In this document: piece after piece, positions 48,300 through 64,000 of the stretch
How the letters are laid out: each line of letters opens with the position of its first letter
How positions within the stretch are numbered: the first letter of the stretch is position 1
Source: Elusimicrobiota bacterium
GTDB taxonomy: Bacteria > Elusimicrobiota > Elusimicrobia > UBA1565 > UBA9628
NCBI GenBank assembly: GCA_016218575.1
Contig: JACRDN010000016.1
Span: 129,306 to 193,305, forward strand
Reading direction: 5' to 3'
DNA: 64,000 bases
The notes under the pieces: generated by a model
Seen by the model: the letters and a program-made list of their open reading frames with translations, nothing else
What the model was told of the DNA's origin: nothing
The model's database searches: none
Program-made: the position numbers and the translations under genes

Positions 48300-49442
48300 A
48301 TGGCCTTCCTCCCATTTTTTCTGCTGATGTCGGCAACCACTGCGGCACAAGTTATTGACGATTCTGATCTGAGCCGCCCCCTGGAAGTCCAGGCTCTCGA
48401 GAGCCTGGACCGAGAAGCTCGCCAAGAGCCCGAGGCTCTCGTATTCTCCCTAAGTCCGGCTCGATTTTCCTGGAGGCCCCTCAAGACCGAACTCCTCGTA
48501 AACGGACGGCTCGCCCTTCAAGACCGGGACGGGCGGGATCGCCCGGCGCGCTTGGCCCAGGTTCGGCTCGTTGGGTCCGGAACTGCCGGCGCCTGGATCC
48601 CGGCCGACGCCCAAGGCGGGTTCTCTTTGAGCGCCCGTGGGCTCTCGGGGACCTACCGCCTGCGCTTCAAGCTCGACAATCCCTATTGGCGCTTCAATGA
48701 CCCCCGCCAAAACCGCGGCTATGAGTGGGAAAGCCCGCCCTTCGAGCTCTCGCCCGGAGCCGGGGCGGATCTCGGCACCCTCAAGCCGGAGGCGGGATCG
48801 CAAAGCGCCCAGTTGGGCCTTCTCCATCTGACCTACCTCGAGGCCTTGGCCTTCCTGGAAAAAAACGCGAGCACGACCTGGTGGCGCAAGCCCCTCACCC
48901 TTAACTGGCCATCCCGGTCCGACTTTTTCAGCCCCTGGGCTTGGAGCCTGGACTTAAGCTCCGCCGCGGCCTGGGATGTGGTTCTCCATGAGCTCGGCCA
49001 CGCCGTCATGCACGGGGCCATGCGGGCCGACCCGGCCGGGGGCCAGCACAAGATAGACGAATGCTATTCCCAGGCCCTGGCCTGGTCCGAGGGCTGGGCC
49101 ACCTTCTTCGCCGCGGCCGTGCGCCTTTCCCCGGAGGACCCGGATGCCAAGTTTGAGTTCCTGGTCCCCCGCCGCGCGCCCATCCGCATCGAGAACGTGC
49201 CCGAGGACGTCTGCGCCGGCCCCTCCAACGAGTGGCGCGTGGCGGCCGGACTCTGGGACCTCCTCGATGCCCACCCCGACGGCAAGGACGCCTTCAGCAT
49301 GGGGTTCTCGCGCCTTTGGAACGCGCTCGAGGGCCAAAGCATGGGCAGCATGGATTCGGCCTGGTCCCTCATCCAAAAGAACCTCGACCCAACGGAAAGG
49401 CAGGCGGGCGAGCGGTCCTTGATCCAGAACACGCTGCGCTAG
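48300..49442 (+). CDS. Secreted putative zincin metalloprotease (HExxH) of unknown family
   Basis: 380 aa. Signal peptide MAFLPFFLLMSATTAAQ and motif VVLHELGHAVMHG. No further family signature recognised. Confidence 0.5.
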   Translation: MAFLPFFLLMSATTAAQVIDDSDLSRPLEVQALESLDREARQEPEALVFSLSPARFSWRPLKTELLVNGRLALQDRDGRDRPARLAQVRLVGSGTAGAWIPADAQGGFSLSARGLSGTYRLRFKLDNPYWRFNDPRQNRGYEWESPPFELSPGAGADLGTLKPEAGSQSAQLGLLHLTYLEALAFLEKNASTTWWRKPLTLNWPSRSDFFSPWAWSLDLSSAAAWDVVLHELGHAVMHGAMRADPAGGQHKIDECYSQALAWSEGWATFFAAAVRLSPEDPDAKFEFLVPRRAPIRIENVPEDVCAGPSNEWRVAAGLWDLLDAHPDGKDAFSMGFSRLWNALEGQSMGSMDSAWSLIQKNLDPTERQAGERSLIQNTLR

Positions 49443-51334
49443 CTTAGGACTTCTTGGGGCTGGGCGTCTCCCGATGCCTCGTGGGCCGAGGCGGGGGTGA
49501 AAGTGGGGACGAGCTCCCGAAGCTTCTTGAGAAGCGCCGCGGGCTTCCCAGTTCGGTTCAATATCTCAAACTCAAGGATGCGGTTCTCGAGATCCTTGGC
49601 GTGGGAGTGGGAATGGCCTTGGCGCAAAATAAGGATGTCCGGATGCTCCGACTGGTCGCACTGGGAGGAGTCTTCAATAAGCTCCTCGTGGATTTTCTCG
49701 CCCTGCTTGAGGCCCGTGAATTGAATCTCCACGTCCTTGTCCGGCTCCAATCCCGTCAATAGGATCAAGTTGCGGGCCATGTCTAGTATCCGCACCGGGG
49801 TTCCCATTTTCAAAATAAAAATCTCCCCGCCCTTGGCCATGGCCACGGCTTGGAGAATGAGCTGGACCGCTTCCTCCACGGTCATAAAATAGCGCGTGGC
49901 CTCATGATGGGTGACCGTGACAGGGCCGCCGCGGGCGATCTGCCTCTGGAATATCTCGAGGACCGAGCCGGAGCTCCCCAGAACGTTGCCGAAGCGCACG
50001 GCCATGAAGCGCGTCTGCCCCCGCGCGGCGAAGGCCCGGACAATGTGCTCGGCCACCCGCTTGGTGGCCCCCATCACGCTCGAGGGCTGGACCGCCTTGT
50101 CGGTGGAAACGAGGAGAAAAACCTCTGCCTGGTGCTGCAGGGCCGCGGAGGCAAGATAGTAGGTGCCCAGGACGTTGTTGGCCACCCCCTCGTGCACGTT
50201 GAATTCCAGCTGATGCACGTGCTTGTGCGCCGCGGCGTGAAGCACGAGATGGGGCTTGTGCTCCTGAAAAACCCTCTCGACAAGAGCCTGGTCGCGGATG
50301 TCCCCAAGAACTGGAACTATTTTTGTCCCGCGAGATTCCTTCAGGAGCTCGGCCTCGGCGTAAAAAAGCGAGGTGGCATGGACGTCCACCAGGACGAGCT
50401 TGGCCGGGCCGTACTGTAATACTTGGCGGCAAAGCTCGGAGCCGATGGTCCCTCCGCCGCCGCTCACAAGGATCGTTTTTCCCCGGACCGCCCGGTCGAT
50501 GAGGGGCAGATCGAGTTTGACCACTTCCCGGTTCAGGAGATCGGCAGGCTTGACCTGGCGCATGGAGAATTCCCGGCCGGGGCTTTTAAGCATCTCCTCG
50601 AGACTCGGGGCGATCTTGAGCTCCGGCCGGTCCGCCCGGTCGCGCAGGGCCTCGACCACGGAACGCACGAGCTCGCCGCGCTTGGCGCTGATGGCGATGA
50701 TGATCTCGTCCACCTGGTAGCGGTCGAGGACCCCGGCGATGGCTTGCCGGCCGCCGAACACGGTGCGGCCGTGCACGCGCAGGCCCCACTTGGCCGGATC
50801 ATCGTCGATGAAGCCCACGACCTTGTAGCGCGGCTCCTGGGTCTTGAGGATCTGCCGCATCAGGCTCTCCCCGAGCTCGCCCGCGCCGATGAGAAGCGCG
50901 TGGCGGTATTCCCCACCGTAGAGGCGCGGCAGGTTCAAATGATGCTTGACGAAGCGTATCCCGAAGCGCACGCCCCCGATGCCGAGGTAGGTGAGCATTG
51001 GATGCAGGAGAAGAATGGACCTCGGGTATTTCCCCTGCCGCATGAAAAGGATGCAAACGGCCCCGGTAACCGCCCCCATGGAGACGGCCCTGGTAATGTT
51101 GATGAGGTCCGAGAAGCTCGAGAAGTAGTATATCCCTCGGTACAGGGAGAAGGCTAGGAAGCTCGCGAAATAGCAGACAAGGATGTAGGGGGCCGTCTGG
51201 AACATCGTGGCGAGGACCACGGAGTCGAGGCTGAAGTCGAAGCGCAAGAGGAACGCCCCCAAGAAGGCCCCGAGAACCACCGCGACGTCGAAAAGGGCGA
51301 CTCCGACCCGACGCGGACTGAAGCGAAATGTCAT
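49439..51334 (-). CDS. Membrane-anchored NDP-sugar 4,6-dehydratase (PglF/CapD/WbpM family)
   Basis: 631 aa. Four N-terminal TM helices, then a Rossmann domain (KTILVSGGGGTIGSELCRQV) and SDR catalytic blocks (typical of UDP-GlcNAc 4,6-dehydratases). Confidence 0.85.
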   Translation of the reverse strand: MTFRFSPRRVGVALFDVAVVLGAFLGAFLLRFDFSLDSVVLATMFQTAPYILVCYFASFLAFSLYRGIYYFSSFSDLINITRAVSMGAVTGAVCILFMRQGKYPRSILLLHPMLTYLGIGGVRFGIRFVKHHLNLPRLYGGEYRHALLIGAGELGESLMRQILKTQEPRYKVVGFIDDDPAKWGLRVHGRTVFGGRQAIAGVLDRYQVDEIIIAISAKRGELVRSVVEALRDRADRPELKIAPSLEEMLKSPGREFSMRQVKPADLLNREVVKLDLPLIDRAVRGKTILVSGGGGTIGSELCRQVLQYGPAKLVLVDVHATSLFYAEAELLKESRGTKIVPVLGDIRDQALVERVFQEHKPHLVLHAAAHKHVHQLEFNVHEGVANNVLGTYYLASAALQHQAEVFLLVSTDKAVQPSSVMGATKRVAEHIVRAFAARGQTRFMAVRFGNVLGSSGSVLEIFQRQIARGGPVTVTHHEATRYFMTVEEAVQLILQAVAMAKGGEIFILKMGTPVRILDMARNLILLTGLEPDKDVEIQFTGLKQGEKIHEELIEDSSQCDQSEHPDILILRQGHSHSHAKDLENRILEFEILNRTGKPAALLKKLRELVPTFTPASAHEASGDAQPQEVLS

Positions 51335-51353
51335 GAAAAATTAATGAAACCCG

Positions 51354-51362
51354 ATTATATCA
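51354..51362 (-). promoter_or_regulatory. Extended -10 TGATATAAT (minus strand) upstream of the PglF-like gene, overlapping the stop codon of the preceding gene
   Basis: Minus-strand ATGATATAATCGG (plus 51350-51362). The TAA of the lipoprotein gene is inside the hexamer. 19 nt to ATG 51334, no Shine-Dalgarno sequence. An identical 12-mer occurs at 57861-57872. Confidence 0.45.
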
Positions 51363-52452: not shown

Positions 52453-53221
52453 AAAGCACCTTGTAGTCCGTGACCGGCCCGGATCCCAAGGGATCGAGCT
52501 CCCGCGCGGGCGCCGACACGTCGATCTCGGGGCCCAGTTCGGCCAGGCGGCCATAAAAAATTCTTTTGAGGAGAGCCTTGCCCTTCATGGTCTTGGGGAC
52601 CAGCCCCAGCGCCACGGCGGTTTTCCGCGCCGCGGCGATGGCCTTCCTGGCCGGGGTATCGTTGGCGACCTTGAACCCCGCCTTGATCTCGGCGGAGAAT
52701 CCGGCCTTCTCGAGGAGAACGCGCAGCTCGGAGGCCGAGTGGTACTTGCGGCTGAAGGGGCTGGGATTGAACTCGGGCCATTCGCGGTTGGCCGTGCACA
52801 GGAGCAAGGCCCCTCCCGAGCGCAGGACGCGGCGGGCCTCGGCCAGGAAGGCCTCGGGGCTCGGCAGATAATACAGGGCCTCGTAGAGGATGACCACATC
52901 GAAGGAATCGTCGGGCCAGGGCATGGCCTGGGCGTCCATGGCCGAGACCTTGATGCGCCCTCCGTAATGCCTGTTGGCCTGCTCCACGAGGCCCTCGCAC
53001 AGGTCTCCCCCGACCACGGACCGCGCGGTTTGAGCCAAGAAGCCCAGGCCGCGGCCCGGGCCGCAGGCCGCCTCGAGGACGTCCTTGCCCGCGCAATAGC
53101 CCGACGCCAGGCGGTAGCGGGTATGGATCATGGAAAGCTGTTCGGCCGAGGCCCTATTGCCCGGGAGCTCCGTCACGGTCGAGAAATCGAGGGCGCTCAC
53201 AGCCGTGAGAGCCTCCCGCAC
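52427..53221 (-). CDS. Class I SAM-dependent methyltransferase
   Basis: 264 aa. Motif I VLEAACGPGRG, plus motifs II and III (VVGGDL..., FDVVILYEALYY). GTG start. Confidence 0.75.
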   Translation of the reverse strand: MREALTAVSALDFSTVTELPGNRASAEQLSMIHTRYRLASGYCAGKDVLEAACGPGRGLGFLAQTARSVVGGDLCEGLVEQANRHYGGRIKVSAMDAQAMPWPDDSFDVVILYEALYYLPSPEAFLAEARRVLRSGGALLLCTANREWPEFNPSPFSRKYHSASELRVLLEKAGFSAEIKAGFKVANDTPARKAIAAARKTAVALGLVPKTMKGKALLKRIFYGRLAELGPEIDVSAPARELDPLGSGPVTDYKVLYAVAKRLP

Positions 53222-54354
53222 GCCTCCTCCAGCTCCTCATCGGTCTTGGCGAAGCAAAAGCGCCCCAAGCCCGCGCCGTCGCGGGATTCGTGGAAGAAGG
53301 CCTCCCCGGAGACGCAGGCGACCCCCGTCGCCTTCAACAAGTGCATGGCCCTATCCCTGCCGGTATGCCCCGGCAGGCGGCTCAAGTCGGCCAGGACATA
53401 ATAGGCTCCCTGGGGCCTGCAGGGGGCCAGGCCCGCCCGCTCCAGGGCCGAGCAGATCATCTCGCGCTTGCGGAAAAATTCCAAGCCGAGGCCCGCGTAG
53501 TATTCCCCACCCAGGTTCATCAGGCCCTCGGCCACCCCGGCCTGGAGCGGGGCCGGGGCGCAGACATAGACGAGGTCGCTCATGTAGCCGATCATCTGGG
53601 CCCATCGGGCGTGGCTGACGCTGTAGCCGATCCTCCAGCCGGTGATGCTCAAGGTCTTGGAGAAGCCGGAAATCGTGATCGTGCGCTCCGCCATGCCCGA
53701 CAAGGCCGCGGGGCTCACGTGCCTGCGTCCGTCGTAAAGGAAATACTCGTAGATCTCGTCGGTGAAGACGAAAAGGTCGTGCTTGACCGCGGCCTCCGCG
53801 ATCCATTGGAGCTCTTCCCGGCCGTAAACCTTGCCCGACGGGTTGCCCGGCGTGTTGACCACGATGGCCCGGGTCCGCGGCGTGATCGCCCTTTCCAGGT
53901 CCTCCTTGGAGAAGGCCCAGTCCGGGGCCCGCATTTTGACGAAAACCGGGACGGCCTCCACGGAAAGCAAGGTGTTGAGGTGATAGCCGTAGAAAGGCTC
54001 GAAGAGAACGACCTCGGCCCCGGGGTCGAGAAGGGCCAGGCACGCCGAGTAGAAGGAGCCCGTGGAGCCGCTGCTCACCACGATCTCGCGCTCGGGGTCG
54101 GCCGAGATTCCGTTGTAGGAGAGCATCTTGGCGGCAATGGCCGACCGGAGCTGCGCGATTCCATCGTAGCGCGTGTAGCTGTTAAGCCCCGCGCCCATGG
54201 CCTTGTGAGCCCCTTCCCGCACCAAAGCCGGAACCGGCGTGTCGCATACCCCCTGAGCCAAGTTCAAGCCCTTGAGCCTCTCGCACTCGATGGACATCGA
54301 GCGGATCTCGGACTGGACGATGGAATCGCAGCGGCGGCTCAAAGTCAGCGCCAT
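53197..54354 (-). CDS. Class I/II pyridoxal-phosphate aminotransferase
   Basis: 385 aa. N-terminal SEIRSMS block, NTPGNPSG, and PLP-lysine region SGFSKTLSITGWRIGY. Confidence 0.8.
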   Translation of the reverse strand: MALTLSRRCDSIVQSEIRSMSIECERLKGLNLAQGVCDTPVPALVREGAHKAMGAGLNSYTRYDGIAQLRSAIAAKMLSYNGISADPEREIVVSSGSTGSFYSACLALLDPGAEVVLFEPFYGYHLNTLLSVEAVPVFVKMRAPDWAFSKEDLERAITPRTRAIVVNTPGNPSGKVYGREELQWIAEAAVKHDLFVFTDEIYEYFLYDGRRHVSPAALSGMAERTITISGFSKTLSITGWRIGYSVSHARWAQMIGYMSDLVYVCAPAPLQAGVAEGLMNLGGEYYAGLGLEFFRKREMICSALERAGLAPCRPQGAYYVLADLSRLPGHTGRDRAMHLLKATGVACVSGEAFFHESRDGAGLGRFCFAKTDEELEEACGRLSRL

Positions 54355-54368
54355 GGGAGCTTAGGCCC

Positions 54369-55502
54369 TTAACCCCGCCCGTAGAAGGAGCGCGCGGCCT
54401 CGATCACGCGCGAAACCTCATCATCCGTGATCTCGGCGCTCATGGGAAGCGAGCACACCTCGCGGCTCAATGCCTCGGTCTCGGGGAATCCCGTGTCCTT
54501 GAGCTTCAGCGCCGCGTGCTTGTAGTAGGGCTTGCGAAACTGCGTCAAAACCTCGATGCCGCAGCTGCGGAGGTGGCTGGAAAAGGCATCTCCTCGCTTA
54601 GAGCGCAGCGTGTAATTCTGATACACATGGTCGGAGCCAAGACGTTGATAATGCGGCAAAAGCAGATCCGGGAGATCTCCCAATTCCTTTTGGTAACGTT
54701 GCGCCAATTCCTTGCGCTTCAATATCCAGCGCGGCAGGTGCCGGAGCTTCACGTCCAGAAAAGCGGCCTGCAGATTGTCGAGCAGGCACGTAAAGCCATG
54801 TCCATGGTATTCGCCCGTTTGGCGGTCCTCGCCGTTGTAGCGCATGCGCCGGACGAAGGCGGCGACCTCGGGATCGTCCGTGGTGATGGCGCCGCCGTCG
54901 CCGTAGCCGCCCAGGATCTTGAAGGGATAAAAGCTCCAGCAGCCGGCAAGGCCCCAAGCCCCGGCCCCTCTGCCGTTGATGCTGGAACCCAGGCTTTGGC
55001 AGGCGTCCTCCACCACGGCGAGGCCGCGGGACTTGGCGATCTCCATGATCCGGGGCATGTCCGCCATCCAGCCGCTCAAATGGACCGGGAGGATCGCCCG
55101 GGTACGAGGCGTGATCGCTTCCTCGATCTTGTCCGGATCTATGTTGAAGTCGCGGGCCACGTCCACCAAGACCGGCGTCGCCCCGACGTTGACCACGGCC
55201 GAGCAGGTGGCCACGAAAGTGTGGGCGGGCACGATCACCTCGTCGCCCGGGCCGATCCCGGCCGCGCGCAGGGCCAGGTGCAAGGCGTCGTAGCCGCTGT
55301 TGAGCCCCACGGCGTACTTCGTGCCGACGAATTTTGCGAGGTTGGCCTCGAAGCCGCGCAGGTGCTCCCTATCTATGAGCGCGCCCTTCTGCATGACGTC
55401 GAAATAGGCGGCGTCGAGCTCCGCCTTGAGCTCGGCGTAGACGCGGGCTGGCGCCACGAACTTGACGGTTTTTCCCGCGGGGGCCTGGGCCGGGGCCGTC
55501 AT
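54369..55502 (-). CDS. DegT/DnrJ/EryC1/StrS-family sugar aminotransferase (PglE-like)
   Basis: 377 aa from internal start MTAPAQAPAGKTVKFVAP (ATGA overlap with the upstream gene; the ORF extends to 55577). Family blocks present (GDEVIVPAHTFVAT, LAVVEDACQSLGS, PFKILGGYGDGGAI). Confidence 0.8.
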   Translation of the reverse strand: MTAPAQAPAGKTVKFVAPARVYAELKAELDAAYFDVMQKGALIDREHLRGFEANLAKFVGTKYAVGLNSGYDALHLALRAAGIGPGDEVIVPAHTFVATCSAVVNVGATPVLVDVARDFNIDPDKIEEAITPRTRAILPVHLSGWMADMPRIMEIAKSRGLAVVEDACQSLGSSINGRGAGAWGLAGCWSFYPFKILGGYGDGGAITTDDPEVAAFVRRMRYNGEDRQTGEYHGHGFTCLLDNLQAAFLDVKLRHLPRWILKRKELAQRYQKELGDLPDLLLPHYQRLGSDHVYQNYTLRSKRGDAFSSHLRSCGIEVLTQFRKPYYKHAALKLKDTGFPETEALSREVCSLPMSAEITDDEVSRVIEAARSFYGRG

Positions 55503-56443
55503 GCCAGGATGCCGTCCGTTTCGAGGGAAACGAGCTTTCGGGCCGCGGCCACGATGTGCTCCACCCCGAGGCCGCATTGATTCCTAAGGTGCTCCTGATT
55601 GCCCACTCCGCGGCAGAATCCCTCGCGCACGCCCACGATGGACAAAGGCGCGCGCCGGCCCGCGTACTGGGCCAAGACCTCGGCCACGGCGCCCCCGAGG
55701 CCCCCGGTCGCGGAATGCTCCTCGACGGTCATCACCGCCGCGGTTTCCTCGGCGGCCTGGAGCACGGCCTCGACGTCCAACGGCTTGACCGTGTGCATGC
55801 TCAAGAGACGCGCCGAGATTCCCTGGGACTTGAGCTTCAAAACCGCCTGATGGGCCGCGTGGAGCATGGCTCCGGTCGAGATCAGGGTGAGGTCGCTTCC
55901 TTCTCTTACGCGTATGGCCTTGCCGATCACGAATTCCGGCGCTCGTTCGTGAACCCGCGGCTCTCCCGCCTTGCCCAAGCGCAGATAGCAGGGACCGTCC
56001 TGGTAAGCCACGGCCCTGGCGGCCGCGGCGGCTTCCCAGGGGTCCCCGGGGGCGACCACCGTCATGCCTGGAAGGGCCCGCATGATGGCGATGTCCTCGA
56101 GGGCGTGGTGGGAGCTGCCGAGGGCCCCGTAGGCCAACCCCGCCCCCACGCTCACCACCTTGACGCTGGCCTGATGATAGCAGACGTCGTTGCGAATCTG
56201 CTCGAGGCAGCGCAGCGTTGGGAAATTGGCGATGCTGTAGGTGAACACGATCTTTCCGGAAAGCGCCATGCCAGCCGCCACGCCGGTCATGTTCTGCTCG
56301 GCCACGCCGACGTTCAGGAACTGTCCGGGGAACCTCGCGGCGAAGGGCTCGAAGACCCCGAAGCCCAGATCGGCCGTCAAAAGGTTGACGTCTGGATCCT
56401 GGGCCGCCACCTCCTCCAGGGCCTTGATGAAGGCGGTTCTCAC
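55499..56443 (-). CDS. Transketolase, C-terminal (pyrimidine-binding) subunit of a split enzyme
   Basis: 314 aa from GTG 56443 (VRTAFIKALEE..., GTGA overlap with the N-terminal subunit stop; the ORF-track ATG is at 56509). Pyrimidine-binding and C-terminal transketolase domains present (ADLGFGVFEPF, VGAGLAYGALGSSHH). Confidence 0.8.
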   Translation of the reverse strand: MRTAFIKALEEVAAQDPDVNLLTADLGFGVFEPFAARFPGQFLNVGVAEQNMTGVAAGMALSGKIVFTYSIANFPTLRCLEQIRNDVCYHQASVKVVSVGAGLAYGALGSSHHALEDIAIMRALPGMTVVAPGDPWEAAAAARAVAYQDGPCYLRLGKAGEPRVHERAPEFVIGKAIRVREGSDLTLISTGAMLHAAHQAVLKLKSQGISARLLSMHTVKPLDVEAVLQAAEETAAVMTVEEHSATGGLGGAVAEVLAQYAGRRAPLSIVGVREGFCRGVGNQEHLRNQCGLGVEHIVAAARKLVSLETDGILA

Positions 56444-57261
56444 TTTCTCCCCTCCAACTCGACCACCGCCGCGTTGTACTCCTGAGCGGAGGCGTTGCGG
56501 TAATGCCAAAGAAGCTTGTCTTCCATGAAGCTGACCCCCTTGCCCTTCACCGTGTGGGCCACCACGCAGGAGGGTCTGCCCGGCTCGAAGGGCGCCTTTC
56601 TAAGCGTCTCGTCTATGAGGCCGAGGTCATGCCCATCGATCTCGCGCACGGCCCAGCGGAAGCCCTCCCATTTCTTGGCGAATGGGTCGAGATCGAGGAC
56701 CTCCTTGGTGCGGCCAAGGCTCTGGATCTTGTTGTAGTCCACGATCGCCACCAGATTGTCCAAACCGTGATGCCCAGCGAACAGCGCCGCTTCCCAGGTC
56801 GAGCCCTCGTCGCACTCCCCATCGCTCAAGAGGCAGAAAACCCGGTGCTTGGCGCGATCCCTCTTGGCGGCGAGCGCCATGCCGCAGGCGATCGGAAGCC
56901 CGTGCCCCAGGGAGCCGGTGGAAACCTCGATCCCGGGCACGCCATGGGTGGAATGCCCGTGGAGCCTGCCGCCGTTGCGGTAAAAAGTCTCAAGCCATTC
57001 CACCGGGAAGAAGCCCTTCCGAGCCAGCGCCGCGTAGAGGCCGGCGCAGGCATGTCCCTTGCTCAGAATGAAGCGGTCGCGGCTCTTCCACTTGGGCTTG
57101 GCGGGGTCCACCTTGAGCACCCCTCCGTAAAGCGCGGCCAGAAGATCCGCCATGGAAAGAGACCCGCCCACGTGGGCGCTGGACGCGAAATGAGTCATTT
57201 TCACGGAAGTCAGCCGTATGAAACGGGCCAACTCCTCGAGCTCGGAGATCCTGTCAGCCAT
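56440..57261 (-). CDS. Transketolase, N-terminal (ThDP-binding) subunit of a split enzyme
   Basis: 273 aa from internal start MADRISELEE. ThDP-binding blocks SKGHACAGLYAA, GHSTHGVPGIEVSTGSLGHGL and SDGECDEGSTWEA. Confidence 0.8.
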   Translation of the reverse strand: MADRISELEELARFIRLTSVKMTHFASSAHVGGSLSMADLLAALYGGVLKVDPAKPKWKSRDRFILSKGHACAGLYAALARKGFFPVEWLETFYRNGGRLHGHSTHGVPGIEVSTGSLGHGLPIACGMALAAKRDRAKHRVFCLLSDGECDEGSTWEAALFAGHHGLDNLVAIVDYNKIQSLGRTKEVLDLDPFAKKWEGFRWAVREIDGHDLGLIDETLRKAPFEPGRPSCVVAHTVKGKGVSFMEDKLLWHYRNASAQEYNAAVVELEGRK

Positions 57262-57263
57262 GT

Positions 57264-57854
57264 TTATTGCGCGATCGCCGTTATCGTCTTGAATATAAGC
57301 TTGAGGTCCACCCATAGATTGTGATTGTCCACGTATTCCAACCCCAGCCGTATTTTTTCCGGCTGTATCAGCGCTTTATAGGCCTTGTGCGGATCCGACT
57401 GCCCCTTGAGGATTTCGCCTTCATTGCGGAAGCGAATCGAGGAATAATCCGTGATCCCGGGCCGAACCGTCAACAGCCGGCGGGTCGATTCATCATACTC
57501 GGCGACTTCGGAAGGCACCTCTGGGCGCGGGCCCACGAAACTCATCTCTCCGACGAAAACGTTCCAAAACTGCGGCAGCTCATCGAATTTATACCGGCGC
57601 AGCAAAGCCCCGATGCGGGTGAGCCGCGGGTCGTCGGACGAAGTGGACGGGCCGCCGATTTTATCGGCGTTTTCCACCATCGTGCGGAACTTCAAGATGC
57701 GAAACGGCCTGCCGTTGAGCCCTATCCGCGAGCCTCGATAAAAAACGGACCCCGGCGACCCCAATTTTATCAGCAGCGCGACCGCAAAAAAAACGGGGGA
57801 AAGGATCGTCAACGCAGCCAAGGAAAAAAAGGCGTCAAAGAGTCGTTTAGACAC
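57264..57854 (-). CDS. Small phosphoglycosyl transferase (bacterial sugar transferase, PglC/WbaP C-terminal-domain type)
   Basis: 196 aa. A single re-entrant N-terminal helix (LFDAFFSLAALTILSPVFF) and the catalytic region (RPFRILKFRTM...DELPQFWNVFVGEMSFVGPRP). GTG start. Confidence 0.85.
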   Translation of the reverse strand: MSKRLFDAFFSLAALTILSPVFFAVALLIKLGSPGSVFYRGSRIGLNGRPFRILKFRTMVENADKIGGPSTSSDDPRLTRIGALLRRYKFDELPQFWNVFVGEMSFVGPRPEVPSEVAEYDESTRRLLTVRPGITDYSSIRFRNEGEILKGQSDPHKAYKALIQPEKIRLGLEYVDNHNLWVDLKLIFKTITAIAQ

Positions 57855-57862
57855 TTCGCGCG

Positions 57863-57871
57863 ATTATATCA
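57863..57871 (-). promoter_or_regulatory. Extended -10 TGATATAAT (minus strand) upstream of the PglC-like gene
   Basis: Minus-strand ATGATATAATCGC (plus 57860-57872) lies 8 nt upstream of GTG 57854 and 8 nt downstream of the preceding GT4 stop. Same 12-mer as at 51350-51361. Confidence 0.45.
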
Positions 57872-57875
57872 TTTT

Positions 57876-59081
57876 TCAACATTTTAGAGACGGCTCGGGC
57901 ACGGGCAGGCCCAGGTCCTGAAGGGCTTTCGGCACGATCAGCCTCTCGTCAAAGTCCCGCATCGCTTTCATGCGCGAATAACGCCCCAATTCCGCCCGCA
58001 AAACGTCGTCGGCCATGACCCGCTCGATCGCGTCGGCCAACGCCCGCGAATCCTTGATCGGGACGAGAAAGCCGTTTCTCCCTTCCTCCACGGCGCCGCG
58101 GCAGTCCTCGCTGGTCGTCGTGATGACGGGCTTGCCCATGGCCATGGGCTCCAGGAGTCCGCGCGGATAGCCGCCCTCCCTGTAGTAGGTCGGCAGCACG
58201 GCCAAATCGGCTATGGCGTAAAAGCTCTTCACGTCGCTTTGAAAGCCAAGCCATCTGAAATTCGCCCTTTTTTCCATTTCCCGCGCGAAGGATTCCGGGA
58301 CCGCGTCCCGGCTGTCCGGCTCCAGGGGCGCGACGAGAATGAATTTGAGTTCCGGACGCTTTCCCCTGAGCCGCTCCGCCGCCTCGGCGAACTCGCGGAC
58401 TCCCTTCTGCCAAATCATCCGCCCCACCATGACCACGGCTCTCTCGGCGGGCCTCAGCCCGCAAAGGGCCTTCGCCGCCTCCCGGCGCCGCTCGCCCACC
58501 AGCTCCACCGCGTACTCGCCGGTGTCGAGATAATTGCGGCTCAAAACCGTGTTCTCCTCCCGGATCAAGCCCTGCTGGACGAAAAACGCGCGGTCGCGGG
58601 CGTTGGTGAACCACGCCCTTCGGCTCCAGCGGCAGGCCAGGCGGTAGAGGCTCATGAAGGCCCGGCGCGTGATCTTCCCTCTGAGGTCCGCGCGGCTCTC
58701 GAAGCCGGAACCCAAGCCCACCACGTGCATGCACACCAACCCAACCCCGGCGCCCTTGGCCGCGAGCGCCCCGTAGATGTTCTGCTTGGTGCAGAAGTTC
58801 AGGACCGCGTCGAACTCGCGCCGACGCATGACGCGCCAGAGGCGCCAAAGATATTTCAAGTCCTCCCAGGGACTCAGCCACCGGTACATGGGAACCGACA
58901 CGCATGAAGCCCCCAACGCCTCGATTTCCTCCCCGTGGACCCCGGTCTCGCACACGACGAAGACTTTCGCGTTCGGAATCCGGAGCAAGGACCCGATCAT
59001 CCCCTTGCAGAACAAAACCACGGAGAGCCCGTCCGGGCAAACGAGGGCGATATTGAAGGGCCGGGGAACGGCCGAGGTCAT
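57876..59081 (-). CDS. GT4-family (GT-B) glycosyltransferase
   Basis: 401 aa from internal start MTSAVPRPFNIALV (ATGA overlap with the upstream gene; the ORF extends to 59165). C-terminal GT4 block YPRGLLEPMAMGKPVITTTSEDCRGAVEEGRNGFLV. Confidence 0.75.
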   Translation of the reverse strand: MTSAVPRPFNIALVCPDGLSVVLFCKGMIGSLLRIPNAKVFVVCETGVHGEEIEALGASCVSVPMYRWLSPWEDLKYLWRLWRVMRRREFDAVLNFCTKQNIYGALAAKGAGVGLVCMHVVGLGSGFESRADLRGKITRRAFMSLYRLACRWSRRAWFTNARDRAFFVQQGLIREENTVLSRNYLDTGEYAVELVGERRREAAKALCGLRPAERAVVMVGRMIWQKGVREFAEAAERLRGKRPELKFILVAPLEPDSRDAVPESFAREMEKRANFRWLGFQSDVKSFYAIADLAVLPTYYREGGYPRGLLEPMAMGKPVITTTSEDCRGAVEEGRNGFLVPIKDSRALADAIERVMADDVLRAELGRYSRMKAMRDFDERLIVPKALQDLGLPVPEPSLKC

Positions 59082-59740
59082 TTCTCGAGGACCAAAAGGG
59101 CGTGCGAAGAGAGAACCGGCGCCACCATGAAGGCGCGCGCCACGCGAAGTCCTTGAGATCGGCACTCGCCCATGACCTCCTCCAGCGGGGCCGGGCAGGG
59201 GGCGGGCACGTGGCCGGGCGTGAGCCGCGACAGGAGGAAATGCTTCAGGCGCTGGAGGGGCGTGTCCACGCTGCAGCTCACGATCACCACTCTATTAGAC
59301 AAAGCGCTAATCTCGCGCAACGCGGCGCGCTTAACCTCGCGAGGAACGCGGTGCAGGAATCCCAAGGTGACGACGCACGCAAAGGAGCCCCTGGGGAAGG
59401 GGGTGGCGGTGATGTCGGCCCGGACGCAGGCCTCCAACCGGCCGCCCGGATATTCCTCCCGGGCCAAGCTCATCATCTCGGAAGATATGTCGCTGGCCAC
59501 AATCTTGAAAGGGAAGCGGCGCAAGACCTTGCCCAGGATGCCGGTCCCGCAAGGGATGTCCAGCAATTGGTCCGAGGAACTCCACCGGTACCGCCCCAGC
59601 TCCCTGGCAATCGCCCTCTGCTCCAGGCAAGTGACGAATCTCGCCCAAGTCCAATCCTTGGTCTGGTGCTTTCTGTACTCGGCCGCCCTCGCGGAGGTGA
59701 GATACGCGTCGCGCGTGCTTCTTTCGTAATCCATCGCCAT
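59078..59740 (-). CDS. Class I SAM-dependent methyltransferase
   Basis: 220 aa. Motif I LLDIPCGTGILG, plus motifs II and III. Confidence 0.75.
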   Translation of the reverse strand: MAMDYERSTRDAYLTSARAAEYRKHQTKDWTWARFVTCLEQRAIARELGRYRWSSSDQLLDIPCGTGILGKVLRRFPFKIVASDISSEMMSLAREEYPGGRLEACVRADITATPFPRGSFACVVTLGFLHRVPREVKRAALREISALSNRVVIVSCSVDTPLQRLKHFLLSRLTPGHVPAPCPAPLEEVMGECRSQGLRVARAFMVAPVLSSHALLVLEK

Positions 59741-59743
59741 GGC

Positions 59744-60817
59744 CTACCCTCGGAAGTCCTGCTCCAATTGTAGTGAAATTTGGCGGCTATAGAAAGGGGT
59801 CACATAAACGCGGGCCGCCATGGCCTTGACCCACGGCGCCCAACGCCTCCGCCGTAGGGAGTCCAGGGCGGTCCGCCAGTGCTTGAGCTGCTCTTTGAGC
59901 AGGAACAGCTTGAACAGCTGCGGGCATCCGGCTCGAGATTGAGCGTAGTACGCGCTCAGAAAGGCCTCCTCGGCCCCGCGGTCCGGCTCCCTCAACACCG
60001 GCAAGGACTTGCTGCCCCAATACAGGATGCGGTATGTCGTCAGGAACCGCGCCAAATCCGCCTCTCGATAAGCGATTTTCATCTTGCCGGGATCCAGGAG
60101 AAACAGGGCGTCTCCGGAGCCGACCAAGACGTTGCGCACGTCCAAACCCTTGAGAGTCGGCACCTTGCCGCTTGGGCGCTCGAAGCCGTTCATGGATCTC
60201 AACTTCTTCAAAACACGCATCAACAAAGGACTGCCCGTGTCGGAGGATAGGTCCTCGCAATAACGCTCGAGCTTGGGCATCTCATCGGACAGGAGAAAAA
60301 CCCCGTCGCTGTAATTGGACCGGTGAAAGCGCCCCAAGGCGGCGCCCAGCCGAGACATAAGACCTCGCAGCCGTTCGCCCTCCCCGTGAAAGCCAAGCCG
60401 CCGGCGGATGTCCAATCGGCGAAAGACGGCCGTCGCGTCATCCCCGCGAACGCGATCCGTGACGATCGCGTTATATTCCGGAACGACTCCGCGAATCTTG
60501 ACCCAACGCACCTGCCAGTCGCCGTTCCAGCCCCGCTCCAGCAGCCTCAAGCTCCTTTCTTCTTCCTGGGCCATCCGCCTGTCCTCCGGAGTGATGGGAA
60601 GAATCTCGGGAGTTCCGCGCACGTCCGTCTTGGGAATCTTGACGAACACATCCCGAGGGCCTGAACGAGCCGCCGCCTTGACCCTGAAGGTGAAGGAAAA
60701 ATAATTAGCCTCCAGAGGGCCTATTTCCACGTCGCCGGCGCCTGCCTCGGCCCCCAAGACATCCCGAACCACCTGCGATCCCAGCAGGCGATGGACGCGA
60801 GCGTTGGCCGGAGTCAT
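59744..60817 (-). CDS. Protein-kinase-like fold phosphotransferase (LPS/sugar kinase, WaaP/Kdo-kinase-like)
   Basis: 357 aa from internal start MTPANARVHR (ATGA overlap with asnB-like; the ORF runs to 60838). Catalytic-loop-like GLDVRNVLVGSGDALFLLDPG (D-x4-N ... D). Confidence 0.5.
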   Translation of the reverse strand: MTPANARVHRLLGSQVVRDVLGAEAGAGDVEIGPLEANYFSFTFRVKAAARSGPRDVFVKIPKTDVRGTPEILPITPEDRRMAQEEERSLRLLERGWNGDWQVRWVKIRGVVPEYNAIVTDRVRGDDATAVFRRLDIRRRLGFHGEGERLRGLMSRLGAALGRFHRSNYSDGVFLLSDEMPKLERYCEDLSSDTGSPLLMRVLKKLRSMNGFERPSGKVPTLKGLDVRNVLVGSGDALFLLDPGKMKIAYREADLARFLTTYRILYWGSKSLPVLREPDRGAEEAFLSAYYAQSRAGCPQLFKLFLLKEQLKHWRTALDSLRRRRWAPWVKAMAARVYVTPFYSRQISLQLEQDFRG

Positions 60818-62739
60818 CGCAGCCAGCGCTCCGCCCACATCTGGAAATTAAGCATCAGCATCACTTTTTCGGCGCGCCCGCCCCGATACTTGTAAAAAGA
60901 GTCCAATTCGCGCCTGGCCGCGCGCTCGTCCAATATCCCCACGCGCCGGATGCTGTCGGGAGAGAGATAGTCCAAGGCCAGGGGCTTCCAAGGCCCCCTC
61001 AGCCAGTCGTAAAGCGGAATGGAAAAGCCCCTCTTGGGGGAGTTGAGCACGGCCTGGGAAATCCAGGGGCTCACGGCGGCCTTGAGCACCCGCTTATGCG
61101 TCCCGTTCTCATAAAGATAGTCGAGAGGCAGGGAGAACGCGAACTCGACCAAGCGATGGTCCAGGAAAGGGTCCCGGCACTCTAGCCCCACGGCCATGGA
61201 AGCGCGGTCCACCTTGCAGAGGATGTCCTCGCCGAGGAAAGCGGACAGGTCCGCGCGCATCATGCGATCGATCAGCCCCCTTTCGCCGTCCCGGGACGTC
61301 TGCCCGAACTCGGCCCCTCGGGCAAAGCCCCCGTTCCCCGTGCCCAGGATATCCCCCACGCTCCGCGCGGTCCAGCCCTTCTCATTGCTGATCCGGATGA
61401 GGTCGTCGTGGCCTCGCACGGGCAGGAGATCGAGCATTTTCTCGTAGCGGGCCGCGGTCTGCGGGTTCCAGCGCGAGCCCTCGCGCAGCGCGAGAGCCGC
61501 CGAGATAAGAGACCGGTAGGGCAGGCGGCGCAGGGCAGCCGAGAGGATCGACCGCAAGGGCGCGGGGAAACGGCTCAGGCGGCGGTAGCGCGCCTCGTAG
61601 GCGGGGTAGCTCTCGTAGCCGCAGAACAGCTCGTCTCCCCCATCGGCGGAAAGGACCACCTTGACCCTCTCCCGCGCCAGGGCGCAGACCATGGAGGTGG
61701 GAATGCCGGAGGCGTCGCCGAAGGGCTCGTCCCATATCTCCACGAAGCGCAGGAGCGCCTCCTGGGCCTGTACGGCGCTCAAGGTCCTCACCGTGTGCCT
61801 GAGGTCCAGATCCCGCGCCACGCGGCGGGCCTTGGGAGACTCGTCATAGGCCGGTTCGTCGAAGCCGATGGTGATGTGCTCCAAGTCCGCGCCCGCCCGC
61901 CTCTTCAAGAACGCGGCCAAAAACGACGAGTCCACGCCCCCGGAGAGAAAAACCCCGACGGGCACATCGGAGACCAGGCGATAGGAGAAGGCGCTGTCGC
62001 AAAGGGTGGAGAGCTCCTCCACGGCCCTCGCGAAGGTGCCGGAGTAGGAGCCCCTCTCGACCCCATCCAGGCTCCAGTAGCGCCAAAGGCGCGCCCCGCC
62101 GTCCGCCTCCACGCGCAAACAGTGCCCCGCCGGCAGCTTGAAGGAGTTCTTGTAAACCGTGGCTTCTCCCAAGGTGTAGCCGAAGCGGAAAAATTGCTCC
62201 AAGCCCTTAGGCAAAAGCTCGCGCCGGAAATCGGGATGGGCGTAAAGGGCCTTGAGCTCGGAGCCGAACAAGAGGCCCTTGGCGGTCTTCTGGTAATAGA
62301 GAGGCTTGACGCCCAGGCGGTCCCGGACCAAGGTGAGGGCTTGGGCGCGCGCGTCCCACAGGGCGAAGGCGAACATCCCGATGAAGCGCTCCAAGGCCGC
62401 CTCGAGGCCCCAGCGGTGGACGGCGTTGAGGACCACCTCGGTGTCCGTGCCTCCCGCGAAGCGGTAGCCCGCGGCCTCGAGCTCGGGGCGGATCTCGCGG
62501 TAGTTGTAGACCTCTCCGTTGAAGACGATGGCCAGAGCCTTGTCCTCGCTCCACATGGGCTGGCGGCCCGCAGGCGAGAGGTCGAGTATGGATAACCGGC
62601 GGTGGGCGAGTCCCAAGCGGCCCTCGCAGTGCAGGCCCTGATCATCCGGCCCGCGATGGACCAAGGCGTCGGCCATGGCGCGCAGGGCCGCCGCGTTGGC
62701 CGGCGCGCCGAAGCTGAGCTCCCCCGCTATGCCGCACAT
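60814..62739 (-). CDS. Asparagine synthase (glutamine-hydrolysing)-family amidotransferase, AsnB/WbpS-like
   Basis: 641 aa from MCGIAG (N-terminal nucleophile Cys directly after Met; the ORF extends 10 codons upstream). Gln-amidotransferase class-II domain plus the PP-loop synthetase domain SGGVDSS. Confidence 0.85.
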   Translation of the reverse strand: MCGIAGELSFGAPANAAALRAMADALVHRGPDDQGLHCEGRLGLAHRRLSILDLSPAGRQPMWSEDKALAIVFNGEVYNYREIRPELEAAGYRFAGGTDTEVVLNAVHRWGLEAALERFIGMFAFALWDARAQALTLVRDRLGVKPLYYQKTAKGLLFGSELKALYAHPDFRRELLPKGLEQFFRFGYTLGEATVYKNSFKLPAGHCLRVEADGGARLWRYWSLDGVERGSYSGTFARAVEELSTLCDSAFSYRLVSDVPVGVFLSGGVDSSFLAAFLKRRAGADLEHITIGFDEPAYDESPKARRVARDLDLRHTVRTLSAVQAQEALLRFVEIWDEPFGDASGIPTSMVCALARERVKVVLSADGGDELFCGYESYPAYEARYRRLSRFPAPLRSILSAALRRLPYRSLISAALALREGSRWNPQTAARYEKMLDLLPVRGHDDLIRISNEKGWTARSVGDILGTGNGGFARGAEFGQTSRDGERGLIDRMMRADLSAFLGEDILCKVDRASMAVGLECRDPFLDHRLVEFAFSLPLDYLYENGTHKRVLKAAVSPWISQAVLNSPKRGFSIPLYDWLRGPWKPLALDYLSPDSIRRVGILDERAARRELDSFYKYRGGRAEKVMLMLNFQMWAERWLR

Positions 62740-63947
62740 GCGCCGCAACCCCTCGCCATCTCCGCCCAAATCCCGGCCAAGCGCGCCACCTTGTCGTCAA
62801 CGAGGTAGCGGGAAAATACCGTGCGGCGGGCTTCCTGGCCGAGCCTGGCGCGCAGGCCGGGATCGGACAATAATTGCCGCCAACGCCGGGCCAGAGCCTC
62901 GACGTCCCCGGGAACCACGAGGCAGCCATTTTCCCCATCCTGGATGGCTTCCCGCAACCCGCCGACGGCCGAGGCGATCACGGGCTTGCCCAAGGCCATG
63001 GACTCGAGCACGGCTCGGCCGAAACCCTCGGCCAGGCTGGGATGGACGATGAAGTCCATGAGGCTGGCGATTTCAAGGGCGTCCTTGCGCCAGCCGGTGA
63101 AGACCACGCGCTCGGCGATGCCGAGCTTATCCGCCAAGGCCTCGAGCTCCCCTTTGTAGGACCGGTACTCGTCCACCACATGGTCGCCCACGAGGTAAAG
63201 CTTGAGCCGCGGGAACTCCCCTGCCAGACGCGCCAGGGCCTCCAGGGCGAAATGCTGGCCCTTGGGCCGGTAAAGCTGGGCCAGCACCGCGACGTTGAGG
63301 CTATCGGGGTCGATGCCGAGCTCCCGCCGGAGGGCCGAATGGTCCCGGCCCTCGACCTCATGAATCAGGGCCGGATCCATCCCTATGCGCAAAATGTCTA
63401 TCTTGCGCGAAAACCACCTCACCAGAAGCGGATAGCGGTCGTCGCGGTTGTGCGGGGCGAAGAACAGTATCTTGGAGGCCAGAACGAAGCAAATCCGATC
63501 TATGATGGGATTGGCGAGTTCGCCTTTGACGTAAAGAAGAGAGGGCACCCCGGCAAGCCTCGCCCCGACCCCAACGCACATCTGCGCGCGCACGCAGTTG
63601 GAGTAAATCACCTCGATGCCGCGCTCGCGCAGGAAGCGCCAGACCCGGAAATTGTAGCGGACCAGGTCCGCGGCGGATTTGAGCTTGGCCAAAGGGCCCG
63701 CCCTCAACAAGGCCTGGCCGTAGCGCCCCAGGGCTCCCGGGGGAGGGAGCACCACGCATTCGACTCCCATGGCCCGGAAGCGCTCGAGTGCTGCGCCCTC
63801 CATCGGCGCCACCACAATGGGATGGAATCGCTCCCGATCAAGGCGCTCAAGAATCAATCGCTGAGTCAGGAAATTGCCCCCCAATCCCATCGGATAGGGC
63901 TCGTAGAAGGCGGTCCGGACGGGGCCCATCATCTTTTCGGAGCTCAA
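62727..63947 (-). CDS. GT4-family (GT-B) glycosyltransferase
   Basis: 406 aa. C-terminal GT4 block GFGRAVLESMALGKPVIASAVGGLREAIQDGENGCLVVPGD. TTG start overlaps the stop of an upstream gene that continues beyond the window. Confidence 0.75.
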   Translation of the reverse strand: MSSEKMMGPVRTAFYEPYPMGLGGNFLTQRLILERLDRERFHPIVVAPMEGAALERFRAMGVECVVLPPPGALGRYGQALLRAGPLAKLKSAADLVRYNFRVWRFLRERGIEVIYSNCVRAQMCVGVGARLAGVPSLLYVKGELANPIIDRICFVLASKILFFAPHNRDDRYPLLVRWFSRKIDILRIGMDPALIHEVEGRDHSALRRELGIDPDSLNVAVLAQLYRPKGQHFALEALARLAGEFPRLKLYLVGDHVVDEYRSYKGELEALADKLGIAERVVFTGWRKDALEIASLMDFIVHPSLAEGFGRAVLESMALGKPVIASAVGGLREAIQDGENGCLVVPGDVEALARRWRQLLSDPGLRARLGQEARRTVFSRYLVDDKVARLAGIWAEMARGCGACAA

Positions 63948-64000
63948 TGCCGCGTCGCCGCCGCGTTAAGTTCCGCCGGAGGCGAGAGCCCCGGGGCTTG
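63944..64000 (-). CDS. 3' end (last 18 codons) of a further minus-strand gene continuing past the window edge
   Basis: In-frame high-GC3 codons ending at TGA 63944-63946, which overlaps the TTG start of the GT4 gene (TTGA), matching the coupling pattern of the operon. Confidence 0.3.
   Translation of the reverse strand, partial: QAPGLSPPAELNAAATRH

Follow-up and report, generated by a model that had tools for sequence, protein, structure and literature searches.

The last 14.5 kb of a 64,000-nucleotide stretch (the window) of contig JACRDN010000016.1, from an Elusimicrobia metagenome-assembled genome (MAG), carry a minus-strand glycan locus, for which a Wzx-dependent surface-polysaccharide operon of O-antigen or exopolysaccharide (EPS) type is the best description. 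The module for its initiating sugar includes a transketolase-like enzyme encoded by two genes, and the reading of the locus as a surface-polysaccharide operon in which this enzyme introduces a carbon branch into the sugar is given about an even chance. The pair would probably add a two-carbon branch to the first sugar at C-4, by analogy with YerE, a thiamine diphosphate (ThDP) enzyme of the decarboxylase class that places a C2 unit onto the C-4 ketone of an NDP-4-keto-6-deoxyhexose, after which a reductase acts on the side-chain carbonyl (PMC12247030). The wider proposal, that a cross-phylum clade of split transketolases represents a second, non-homologous solution to YerE chemistry and gives an undescribed C-4 branched amino sugar that initiates surface polysaccharides, is offered tentatively and with somewhat less than even confidence. 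An original prediction, made from the window alone, had read the locus as a PglF-PglE-PglC pathway of bacillosamine type. Its observations are largely right but incomplete, as it did not include four of the genes, those for the N- and C-terminal transketolase-like subunits (TK-N and TK-C), a class I/II aminotransferase and a glycoside-hydrolase (GH)-like lipoprotein; its interpretation is supported only for the first enzymatic step and for the lipid-linked start of the glycan. Although it opens as the bacillosamine pathway does, the locus does not belong to that pathway.

The transketolase-like pair belongs to a group of proteins distinct from housekeeping transketolases. The window TK-N, like the kinase of the operon, is 100% identical to a protein of an Elusimicrobia MAG, and its 120 best homologues, from several phyla, are 66-80% identical to it. 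In a comparison of motifs, housekeeping split transketolases keep ATRxAYG, DADLxxSTKT, THAGITVGEDGASHQ and RLGR. The corresponding motifs in the clade from glycan loci are MRTAF, in which the Arg is kept; GDLGFGV, in which the Ser is lost and one residue deleted; and GxLGxSHH, in which the phosphate-binding His has become Gly and the acceptor Asp has become Leu. The cofactor Glu is kept in both groups. The window TK-C reads MRTAF, GDLGFGV and GALGSSHH at these sites, and the sugar-phosphate Ser and His and the Asp that binds the C2-OH of the acceptor (GEDG motif) are missing from the window enzyme and from its clade, which carry GDLGFGV- and GAGLAYGALGSSHH. The motifs for ThDP and Mg and the cofactor Glu (SDGECDEG, YNK, AEQN) are kept, as are the catalytic histidines (in SAH, KGH, GH and WH); the roles of all these residues are those that we take over from yeast and E. 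coli transketolase. In the neighbour-joining tree of TK-N, the 32 sequences whose TK-C has the motif group together in a clade of their own, with no others in it. Against the NCBIfam transketolase model NF004559 the two subunits score 291 and 219 bits, both short of its cutoff of 488 bits, which is set for the fused protein. No homology to YerE was found in the domain matches, which are Pfam Transketolase_N, Transket_pyr and Transketolase_C, with TPP_enzyme_C only marginal and sub-threshold, and any function shared with YerE would be analogous, not homologous. In one locus (L006, 10831-11770) TK-C is called as two open reading frames (ORFs), a Transket_pyr protein of 185 aa and a Transketolase_C protein of 132 aa, by frameshift or by a further split.

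The genomic contexts of this clade were compiled from a scan of GTDB species representatives, which returned 80 loci whose six-frame ORFs were compared with the window proteins. All five of the first-sampled TK-N homologue contexts are glycan clusters. TK pairs scoring at least 300 bits adjoin genes for DegT-family aminotransferases, small phosphoglycosyltransferases (PGTs), PglF-like dehydratases and methyltransferases, and lower-scoring pairs do not. The common gene orders are methyltransferase, DegT, (TylF-like methyltransferase), TK-N, TK-C, PGT and PGT, TK-N, TK-C, DegT, methyltransferase, PglF. A DegT, small PGT, PglF-like or RfbF/RfbG gene is found within 10 kb in 28 of 29 motif-positive loci as against 2 of 54 motif-negative ones, and one of these two (L018) bears a variant of the clade motif. 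Likewise, a PglF-like or CDP-glucose 4,6-dehydratase (at least 150 bits, within 10 kb) is present in 15/29 clade loci and in 1/55 housekeeping loci. The clade is distributed amongst surface-glycan loci of Elusimicrobia, Acidobacteria, Planctomycetes, Proteobacteria, Bacteroides, Saccharibacteria and several other lineages. It is widespread and uncharacterised and, to judge from its motifs and neighbours, probably consists of keto-sugar C-branching enzymes.

The clade loci were divided into two mutually exclusive types that are interleaved in the TK-N tree. Type A loci, the window among them, contain UDP-HexNAc genes, namely a PglF-like gene and a small PGT, in most cases together with a DegT. 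In L004 the place of DegT is taken by an aldo-keto reductase and a TylF-type methyltransferase, and L028, L030 and L036 have no DegT in view; DegT is dispensable in type A. Type B loci contain a glucose-1-phosphate cytidylyltransferase (RfbF) and a CDP-glucose 4,6-dehydratase (RfbG), with RfbH in 7 of 9 and a short-chain dehydrogenase/reductase (SDR) immediately before TK-N. These assignments are above the NCBIfam cutoffs in a Bacteroides MAG (L025) and in Bradyrhizobium diazoefficiens (L014). Type B corresponds to the genes for yersiniose, except that the TK pair occupies the place of YerE. Cultured carriers include Hoeflea sp. AS60 and Roseovarius sp. E0-M6 for type A and Bradyrhizobium diazoefficiens SZCCT0138 and Sphingobium agri MAH-33 for type B. 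A methyltransferase of about 265 aa and of TylF/Methyltransf_24 type lies between DegT and TK-N in L007, L011, L015, L018, L020 (9006-9983) and L027 and elsewhere in the locus in L024 (12301-13086, minus strand); in most of these type A loci, which are mainly proteobacterial, it comes immediately before TK-N, and the window has none.

The following series of reactions is proposed. The PglF-type dehydratase, in which STDKAV (aligned with STDKAV of PglF) and MGATKR are conserved, should convert UDP-GlcNAc to UDP-2-acetamido-2,6-dideoxy-hexos-4-ulose and would thereby supply the 4-keto sugar. The C-4 ketone would be taken by the split transketolase-like enzyme as acceptor for its ThDP-bound C2 unit, since an enzyme forming an NDP-4-keto-6-deoxyhexose is the only feature common to all contexts. 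Hydroxypyruvate or a ketose as donor would give a hydroxyacetyl unit and pyruvate an acetyl unit, and the product would be a C-4 branched tertiary-alcohol sugar, as in the YerE reaction of yersiniose synthesis. The adjacent DegT would aminate the new side-chain carbonyl; in loci without DegT this carbonyl would be reduced by the SDR or the aldo-keto reductase. The methyltransferase would methylate the branched product, and the class I/II aminotransferase may, as a speculation, supply a 2-oxo-acid donor. The small PGT would load the finished sugar-phosphate onto undecaprenyl phosphate, and the genes further upstream in the window (cassette I, described below) would extend the repeat unit and decorate it, likely by phosphorylating and methylating it and by amidating a uronic acid. 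The unit would be flipped by Wzx, and a protein with about 12 transmembrane (TM) segments would probably polymerise it, the GH-like lipoprotein probably trimming the polymer.

Several points weigh against this reading. The acceptor, donor and product of the transketolase-like enzyme are all such as we infer from genomic context and active-site changes. Fisher's p of ~1e-18 for the comparison of 28/29 with 2/54 loci ignores relatedness and the horizontal transfer of whole cassettes, and eight type A loci have no PglF-like gene within their 10-kb flanks. The nearest solved relatives of DegT are aminotransferases acting at ring C-3 or C-4, and exocyclic amination is what we infer for it; it could simply make a 4-amino sugar, and on that molecule the proposed acceptor would then no longer be available to the transketolase-like enzyme. 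A 2-acetamido-2,6-dideoxy-4-C-(amino)hydroxyethyl hexose is not known to us from nature. With regard to the polysaccharide, the 12-TM protein is probably the polymerase, a candidate by topology alone. A cluster of Wzy, Wzz and WaaL genes just outside the window had been named in advance as pointing to an ordinary O-antigen locus; the Wzx, this candidate and the O-antigen-type families encoded there bring the locus much of the way to that description, and neither a Wzz/PCP chain-length regulator nor a WaaL ligase was found in the 24.6 kb read. Branching of the shewanellose type, which would explain the AsnB-type protein of the operon, was considered and rejected on chemical grounds: the branch of shewanellose is attached via a methylene carbon and not by an acyloin linkage.

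PGTs acting on UDP-N,N'-diacetylbacillosamine (UDP-diNAcBac) have a fingerprint made up of an aromatic box, a GLLLP loop and a C-terminal extension (PMC10186338). The window PGT is without the GLLLP loop, reading IGGPSTSSDD where PglC has NG--ELLPDD, and has Glu in place of Tyr118, with Tyr122 retained. It aligns to PglC of C. concisus over residues 3-145 only, the later region being unalignable, and scores higher to WbaP than to PglC (105 vs 90 bits). Judged from these residues and scores, the PGT is not of the diNAcBac type. Amongst solved structures DegT is closest to proteins in the range of 214-287 bits, including DesV (279 bits), QdtB (229), WbpE (214) and 7b0d; the three named proteins are 3-aminotransferases. 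DegT reaches about 97-98 bits with two C. jejuni chains, 1o61 and 4ztc, taken here to be PglE, and with chain 2fn6, taken here to be PseC, and its regiochemistry is unreadable from sequence. The small monotopic PGT and the DegT protein, the latter with its catalytic Lys, that had been named PglC- and PglE-like are both present; the first is without the diNAcBac fingerprint, and the second resembles 3-aminotransferases far more than PglE.

The alternative that survives best, though it appears rather unlikely, is a start of non-acetylated bacillosamine or AAT type, in which DegT aminates C-4 to give a UDP-4-amino-4,6-dideoxy-HexNAc, the methyltransferase N-methylates the amine or the amine stays free, the PGT transfers the product, and the TK pair has an accessory task, for instance the supply of a C2 or acyl precursor for a different decoration. 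The co-occurrence of PglF, DegT and small PGT genes fits this scheme, as do the catalytic lysine of DegT, its membership of a family of ring-ketone aminotransferases and the recurrence of the methyltransferase beside it. However, the scheme has no role for the TK pair, the most conserved element of the module, and leaves unexplained the clade in CDP-hexose and UDP-type loci without DegT; the missing PGT fingerprint and the low score of DegT (~98 bits) to the putative PglE chains also speak against it.

The model of the original prediction is improbable. It holds that a PglF-PglE-PglC bacillosamine pathway makes a short decorated oligosaccharide with which a Wzy_C protein encoded after pilQ glycosylates pilin or other proteins. 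The domains of the trio are indeed present, and the Wzy_C-domain gene does lie directly downstream of pilMNO-Q. O-oligosaccharyltransferases can use units linked to undecaprenyl diphosphate from O-antigen-type loci, and a shared donor is thus possible, which counts in favour of O-glycosylation. Against the pathway, the PGT is without the diNAcBac fingerprint, DegT is closer to 3-aminotransferases than to the putative PglE chains, and no PglD-like gene is visible: a check for one found no acetyltransferase domain in the 13 window ORFs or the eight upstream genes, together about 24.6 kb, and one may lie elsewhere in the genome. Against the short glycan, a Wzx flippase, the candidate polymerase and two O-antigen-type families are encoded just upstream, and a secreted GH-like protein is part of the operon. 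A polysaccharide fits better than a short O-glycan because of this Wzx, the 12-TM protein and the two O-antigen-type families. It had been noted that Wzx and Wzy are lacking from the window, which is literally true; the operon runs off the window end, and Wzx and the 12-TM protein lie just beyond. The proposed link to the Wzy_C gene (6121-7590), considered PglL-like, is not supported either. This gene lies 42 kb off behind housekeeping genes, with BamA, RecG, MetH and peptidase genes between, and its product has the Wzy_C domain only, without a PglL-specific match (PglL_A or Wzy_C_2). Its surroundings (338-7590, minus strand), in which it is followed by genes for proteins of 771 and 616 aa (about 6 TM segments each, no family match), an LPG_synthase_TM protein and a methyltransferase, would form a second, separate group for membrane glycan or lipid modification.

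Least credible is the view that the TK genes are ordinary pentose-phosphate genes, in the operon by chance or boosting sugar-phosphate supply (such as sedoheptulose-7-phosphate for heptoses). In its favour, NF004559 is matched, below its cutoff, and heptose-type genes occur in L002 (GHMP kinase and NTP transferase) and L004 (NTP-transferase/HAD fusion). Against it, other residues stand throughout the clade at the sites of the phosphate-binding Ser and His and of the acceptor Asp, all of which housekeeping split transketolases of the same dataset retain; the clade is also monophyletic, with almost all of its loci linked to glycans, and translational coupling joins the TK genes to PGT and DegT. 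The supply of sedoheptulose-7-phosphate in particular was rejected, the clade having lost the canonical phosphate-site residues.

Thirteen co-directional ORFs on the minus strand (49439-63947) form an unbroken array with 4-nt overlaps or tiny gaps, consistent with the single operon that had been predicted. PglF, DegT and PGT genes are not contiguous within it, and its 3' end is convergent with a plus-strand ORF. The stop codon of a further gene overlaps the start of the first GT4 glycosyltransferase gene, and the last 54 bases of the window code for the C-terminus of its product. The upstream part was read from L087, an 18-kb Logan contig of the same sample, to which the window end is identical over the 200 nt compared; the readable extent is the window array plus about 10 kb upstream of the window end, about 24.6 kb in all. 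Together these make up a single-strand operon of at least 24.6 kb, of which the window contains the downstream 14.5 kb (Table 1), with gene families assigned by Pfam and NCBIfam scans. A promoter and terminator scan of the region gave no signal above chance, 14 terminator-like sites being found and 15.2 expected from shuffled sequence. With an initiating PGT and two GT4 enzymes in the window and Wzx beyond its end, the operon has the make-up of a Wzx-dependent surface-polysaccharide locus. The 12-TM protein has no Pfam or NCBIfam family match.

Table 1. Features of the operon in order of transcription (window coordinates; genes beyond the window end are given by their rank on contig L087, counted upstream from the window end)
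Position	Strand	Feature	Basis
L087, 8th upstream		Epimerase/dehydratase	
L087, 7th upstream		GDSL-family protein	
L087, 6th upstream		TIGR04331 (o_ant_LIC12162) transferase	488 bits, above cutoff
L087, 5th upstream		Polysacc_synt flippase (Wzx), 10 TM, 5.4-7 kb beyond window end	41 bits vs 28.2 cutoff
L087, 4th upstream		TIGR04326 (O_ant_LIC13510) protein	513 bits, above cutoff
L087, 3rd upstream		Second DegT, closest to perosamine synthase	
L087, 2nd upstream		Methyltransferase	
L087, 1st upstream		505-aa protein, about 12 TM, candidate Wzy	12 hydrophobic segments, long loop at residues 280-400
63947..64000	-	3' end (last 17 codons) of the 505-aa, ~12-TM protein, candidate Wzy-type polymerase	Translated window end, QAPGLSPPAELNAAATRH followed by stop, equals C-terminus of L087 8472-9989
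62727..63932	-	GT4 glycosyltransferase, 401 aa from ATG	Glycos_transf_1, 130 bits
60814..62739	-	AsnB-type glutamine-dependent amidotransferase	GATase_7 and Asn_synthase domains
59744..60817	-	Predicted small-molecule kinase, APH/choline-kinase fold, 357 aa	AlphaFold model, pLDDT 93.4
59078..59740	-	Class I SAM methyltransferase, 220 aa	Methyltransf_25, Methyltransf_11
57876..59081	-	GT4 glycosyltransferase, 401 aa	Glycos_transf_1, Glyco_trans_4_4; start from L001 gene call
57264..57854	-	Small monotopic phosphoglycosyltransferase, 196 aa, GTG start	Bac_transf, 204 bits, residues 3-194
56440..57261	-	Transketolase-like ThDP enzyme, N-terminal subunit (TK-N), 273 aa	Transketolase_N, 157 bits
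55499..56443	-	Transketolase-like ThDP enzyme, C-terminal (Pyr + C) subunit (TK-C), 314 aa	Transket_pyr and Transketolase_C
54369..55502	-	DegT-family PLP aminotransferase, 377 aa	PF01041, 331 bits; SFYPFK lysine motif
53197..54354	-	Class I/II amino-acid/2-oxo-acid aminotransferase, 385 aa	Aminotran_1_2, 193 bits
52427..53221	-	Class I SAM methyltransferase, 264 aa, recurrent DegT/TK partner	Methyltransf_11, 77 bits
51355..52452	-	Secreted lipoprotein-like TIM-barrel protein, glycoside-hydrolase-like fold, 365 aa	AlphaFold model, pLDDT 93.7
49439..51334	-	PglF/WbpM-type membrane-anchored UDP-GlcNAc 4,6-dehydratase, 631 aa, last operon gene	Polysacc_synt_2, 354 bits, and CoA_binding_3

The operon is a mosaic of two cassettes, both of which recur in other phyla. 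Cassette I groups together the GT4, AsnB, kinase, methyltransferase and GT4 genes, and cassette II runs in the order PGT, TK-N, TK-C, DegT, class I/II aminotransferase, methyltransferase, GH-like protein, PglF. A Desulfobacterales MAG (GCA_015232515.1, L088) has GT4, kinase, methyltransferase, (methyltransferase), GT4, methyltransferase, PGT, TK-N, TK-C, DegT and class I/II aminotransferase genes in the order of the window, with scores of 183-638 bits to the window proteins and a TK-C that bears the clade motif. About 10 kb of the window operon is thus syntenic in another phylum (L088, 891-11321), and this synteny points to horizontal transfer of whole cassettes. L089 contains cassette I only, beside two UDP-sugar 6-dehydrogenases and an epimerase.

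In cassette II the PGT has one hydrophobic N-terminal segment, the DE dyad and the PRP motif, in agreement with the earlier claim of a lipid-linked glycan started by a small PGT. The ORF with the GTG start matches Bac_transf and WbaP from residue 3; the public gene call (L001, 4706-5122) gives only 138 aa and drops the N-terminal membrane helix. DegT has orthologues in L002 (664 bits) and in L088 (638 bits), each of them immediately following TK-C. The class I/II aminotransferase has its nearest solved structures amongst Asp/aromatic and kynurenine aminotransferases, which are broad-specificity amino-acid/2-oxo-acid transaminases, and with an orthologue at the same position in L088 (404 bits) it is a conserved member of the TK module in this sub-lineage. 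The 264-aa methyltransferase has homologues adjoining DegT and TK in L006, L011, L015, L020 and L088; in the PDB it gave only generic matches of at most 47 bits, and no assignment as an N- or O-methyltransferase was made. For the 365-aa lipoprotein, searches of Pfam, NCBIfam and PDB sequences returned nothing. Its model is a TIM barrel with a beta-sandwich, for which Foldseek found GH13, GH5, GH30 and GH66 hydrolases (TM-score ~0.5). Its family has about 100 members, those with a named source all being from Elusimicrobia, and a homologue is found directly upstream of TK in L004 (477 bits). Secreted glycanases of GH-like kind are typical of exopolysaccharide loci. The dehydratase has three N-terminal TM segments, and its best solved relative is PglF of C. 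jejuni (5bju, 266 bits), in keeping with the membrane-anchored PglF/CapD-like enzyme of the original prediction.

In cassette I both GT4 enzymes and the AsnB-type protein had been correctly named, and of three claimed SAM methyltransferases the range contains only two; another is encoded beyond the window end. The product of the GT4 gene that opens the cassette is found unchanged on a Logan contig; L088 has an orthologue of it at 440 bits and L089 one at 522 bits, and a scan of genome contigs queried with GT4 returned no relative; the GT4 that closes it has an orthologue in L088 (601 bits). The AsnB-type protein scores 429 bits to TIGR01536, above its cutoff of 267.1, and its top match is TIGR03108 (XrtA/PEP-CTERM amidotransferase) with 523 bits, under the cutoff of that model. 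Its orthologue in L089 (935 bits) adjoins the UDP-sugar 6-dehydrogenases, and since cassette I stands there beside these genes and the epimerase, amidation of a uronic acid is suggested. AsnB-type genes also lie directly after TK-C in L004 (11845-13719) and L007 (~10827), which the branching model does not explain and which hints that amidation may be functionally linked to the branching module. The kinase has no significant Pfam match (APH at E=0.043, below threshold) and none in a search of PDB sequences. Foldseek on its AlphaFold model gave PsiK, corramycin phosphotransferase, LicA choline kinase and maltokinase, and Lys60, Glu86, Asp226, Asn229 and Asp242 are invariant in its family; by its model it is a small-molecule kinase of APH/choline-kinase fold, which bears out the earlier label of a kinase-like protein. 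Orthologues of the 220-aa methyltransferase come after the kinase in L088 and L089.

Two other parts of the window were recorded. The plus-strand ORF at 48300-49442, which overlaps the stop of the PglF-like gene and is preceded by M14 and M3 peptidase genes, encodes 380 aa with an N-terminal signal-like segment and a VLHELGHAVMH motif resembling the HExxH of zinc proteases, and has no Pfam or NCBIfam match. A plus-strand cluster at 12836-19528 encodes an NTP-transferase-like protein, an unknown 284-aa protein, a class III aminotransferase, a CDP-alcohol phosphatidyltransferase and a myo-inositol-1-phosphate synthase, and looks like a pathway for an inositol-phosphate lipid or solute.

If the proposed function is true, the recurrent annotation 'transketolase' in O-antigen, EPS and capsule loci gains a meaning. 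Such loci are found in at least 10 lineages, including Bradyrhizobium, Sphingobium, Hoeflea, Roseovarius, a Bacteroides MAG and Actinoplanes, and a new class of C-4 branched (amino) sugars would be predicted on the surfaces of uncultured and some cultured bacteria. It would also provide tractable transketolases from outside Streptomyces that accept ketones to give tertiary alcohols, a class proposed and never demonstrated (PMC12247030). The literature search found no report of the clade in surface-glycan loci of Gram-negative bacteria or candidate phyla, which is weak evidence as most subscription journals were outside the search, and nothing functional on transketolases in O-antigen or other glycan loci besides a ThDP review and a paper on Actinoplanes, both discussed below.

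Four known systems invite comparison. The window shares with the diNAcBac pathway of Campylobacter and Neisseria a PglF-type retaining 4,6-dehydratase, a DegT-family aminotransferase and a small monotopic PGT, but its locus has no visible PglD, its PGT is without GLLLP and part of the aromatic box, its DegT is much nearer to DesV, QdtB and WbpE than to the putative PglE chains, and its module adds transketolase-like, methyltransferase and class I/II aminotransferase genes. For annotation, PglF, DegT and a small PGT do not by themselves indicate bacillosamine. The system of YerE and YerF, which makes CDP-yersiniose A for the O-antigen of Yersinia pseudotuberculosis, is approached by the type B relatives, which sit among RfbF, RfbG, RfbH and SDR genes. 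The window enzyme is a split protein of transketolase fold, whereas YerE is of the decarboxylase class, and its acceptor would be a ketone derived from UDP-HexNAc, with an aminotransferase replacing the reductase. In Streptomyces, split-gene transketolases of miharamycin and amipurimycin synthesis have been proposed to place a hydroxyacetyl group onto a keto sugar, an activity so far without demonstration in vitro, and 13 further cases predicted by bioinformatics 'all originate from Streptomycetes', none of them characterised (PMC12247030, a 2025 review). As far as the descriptions allow comparison, these pairs and the window pair are alike in the split TK-N and TK-C beside keto-sugar-forming enzymes and in the chemistry proposed; the Streptomyces pairs belong to nucleoside-antibiotic clusters, whereas the window clade is found in surface-glycan loci. 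Finally, methyltransferase, TK-N, TK-C and DegT genes stand together in wps-2 of Actinoplanes missouriensis, a predicted Wzx/Wzy-dependent EPS cluster annotated at the domain level with no function assigned (PMC13390465, 2026). By description only, this is the combination seen in the window, in an organism that differs in being an actinomycete.

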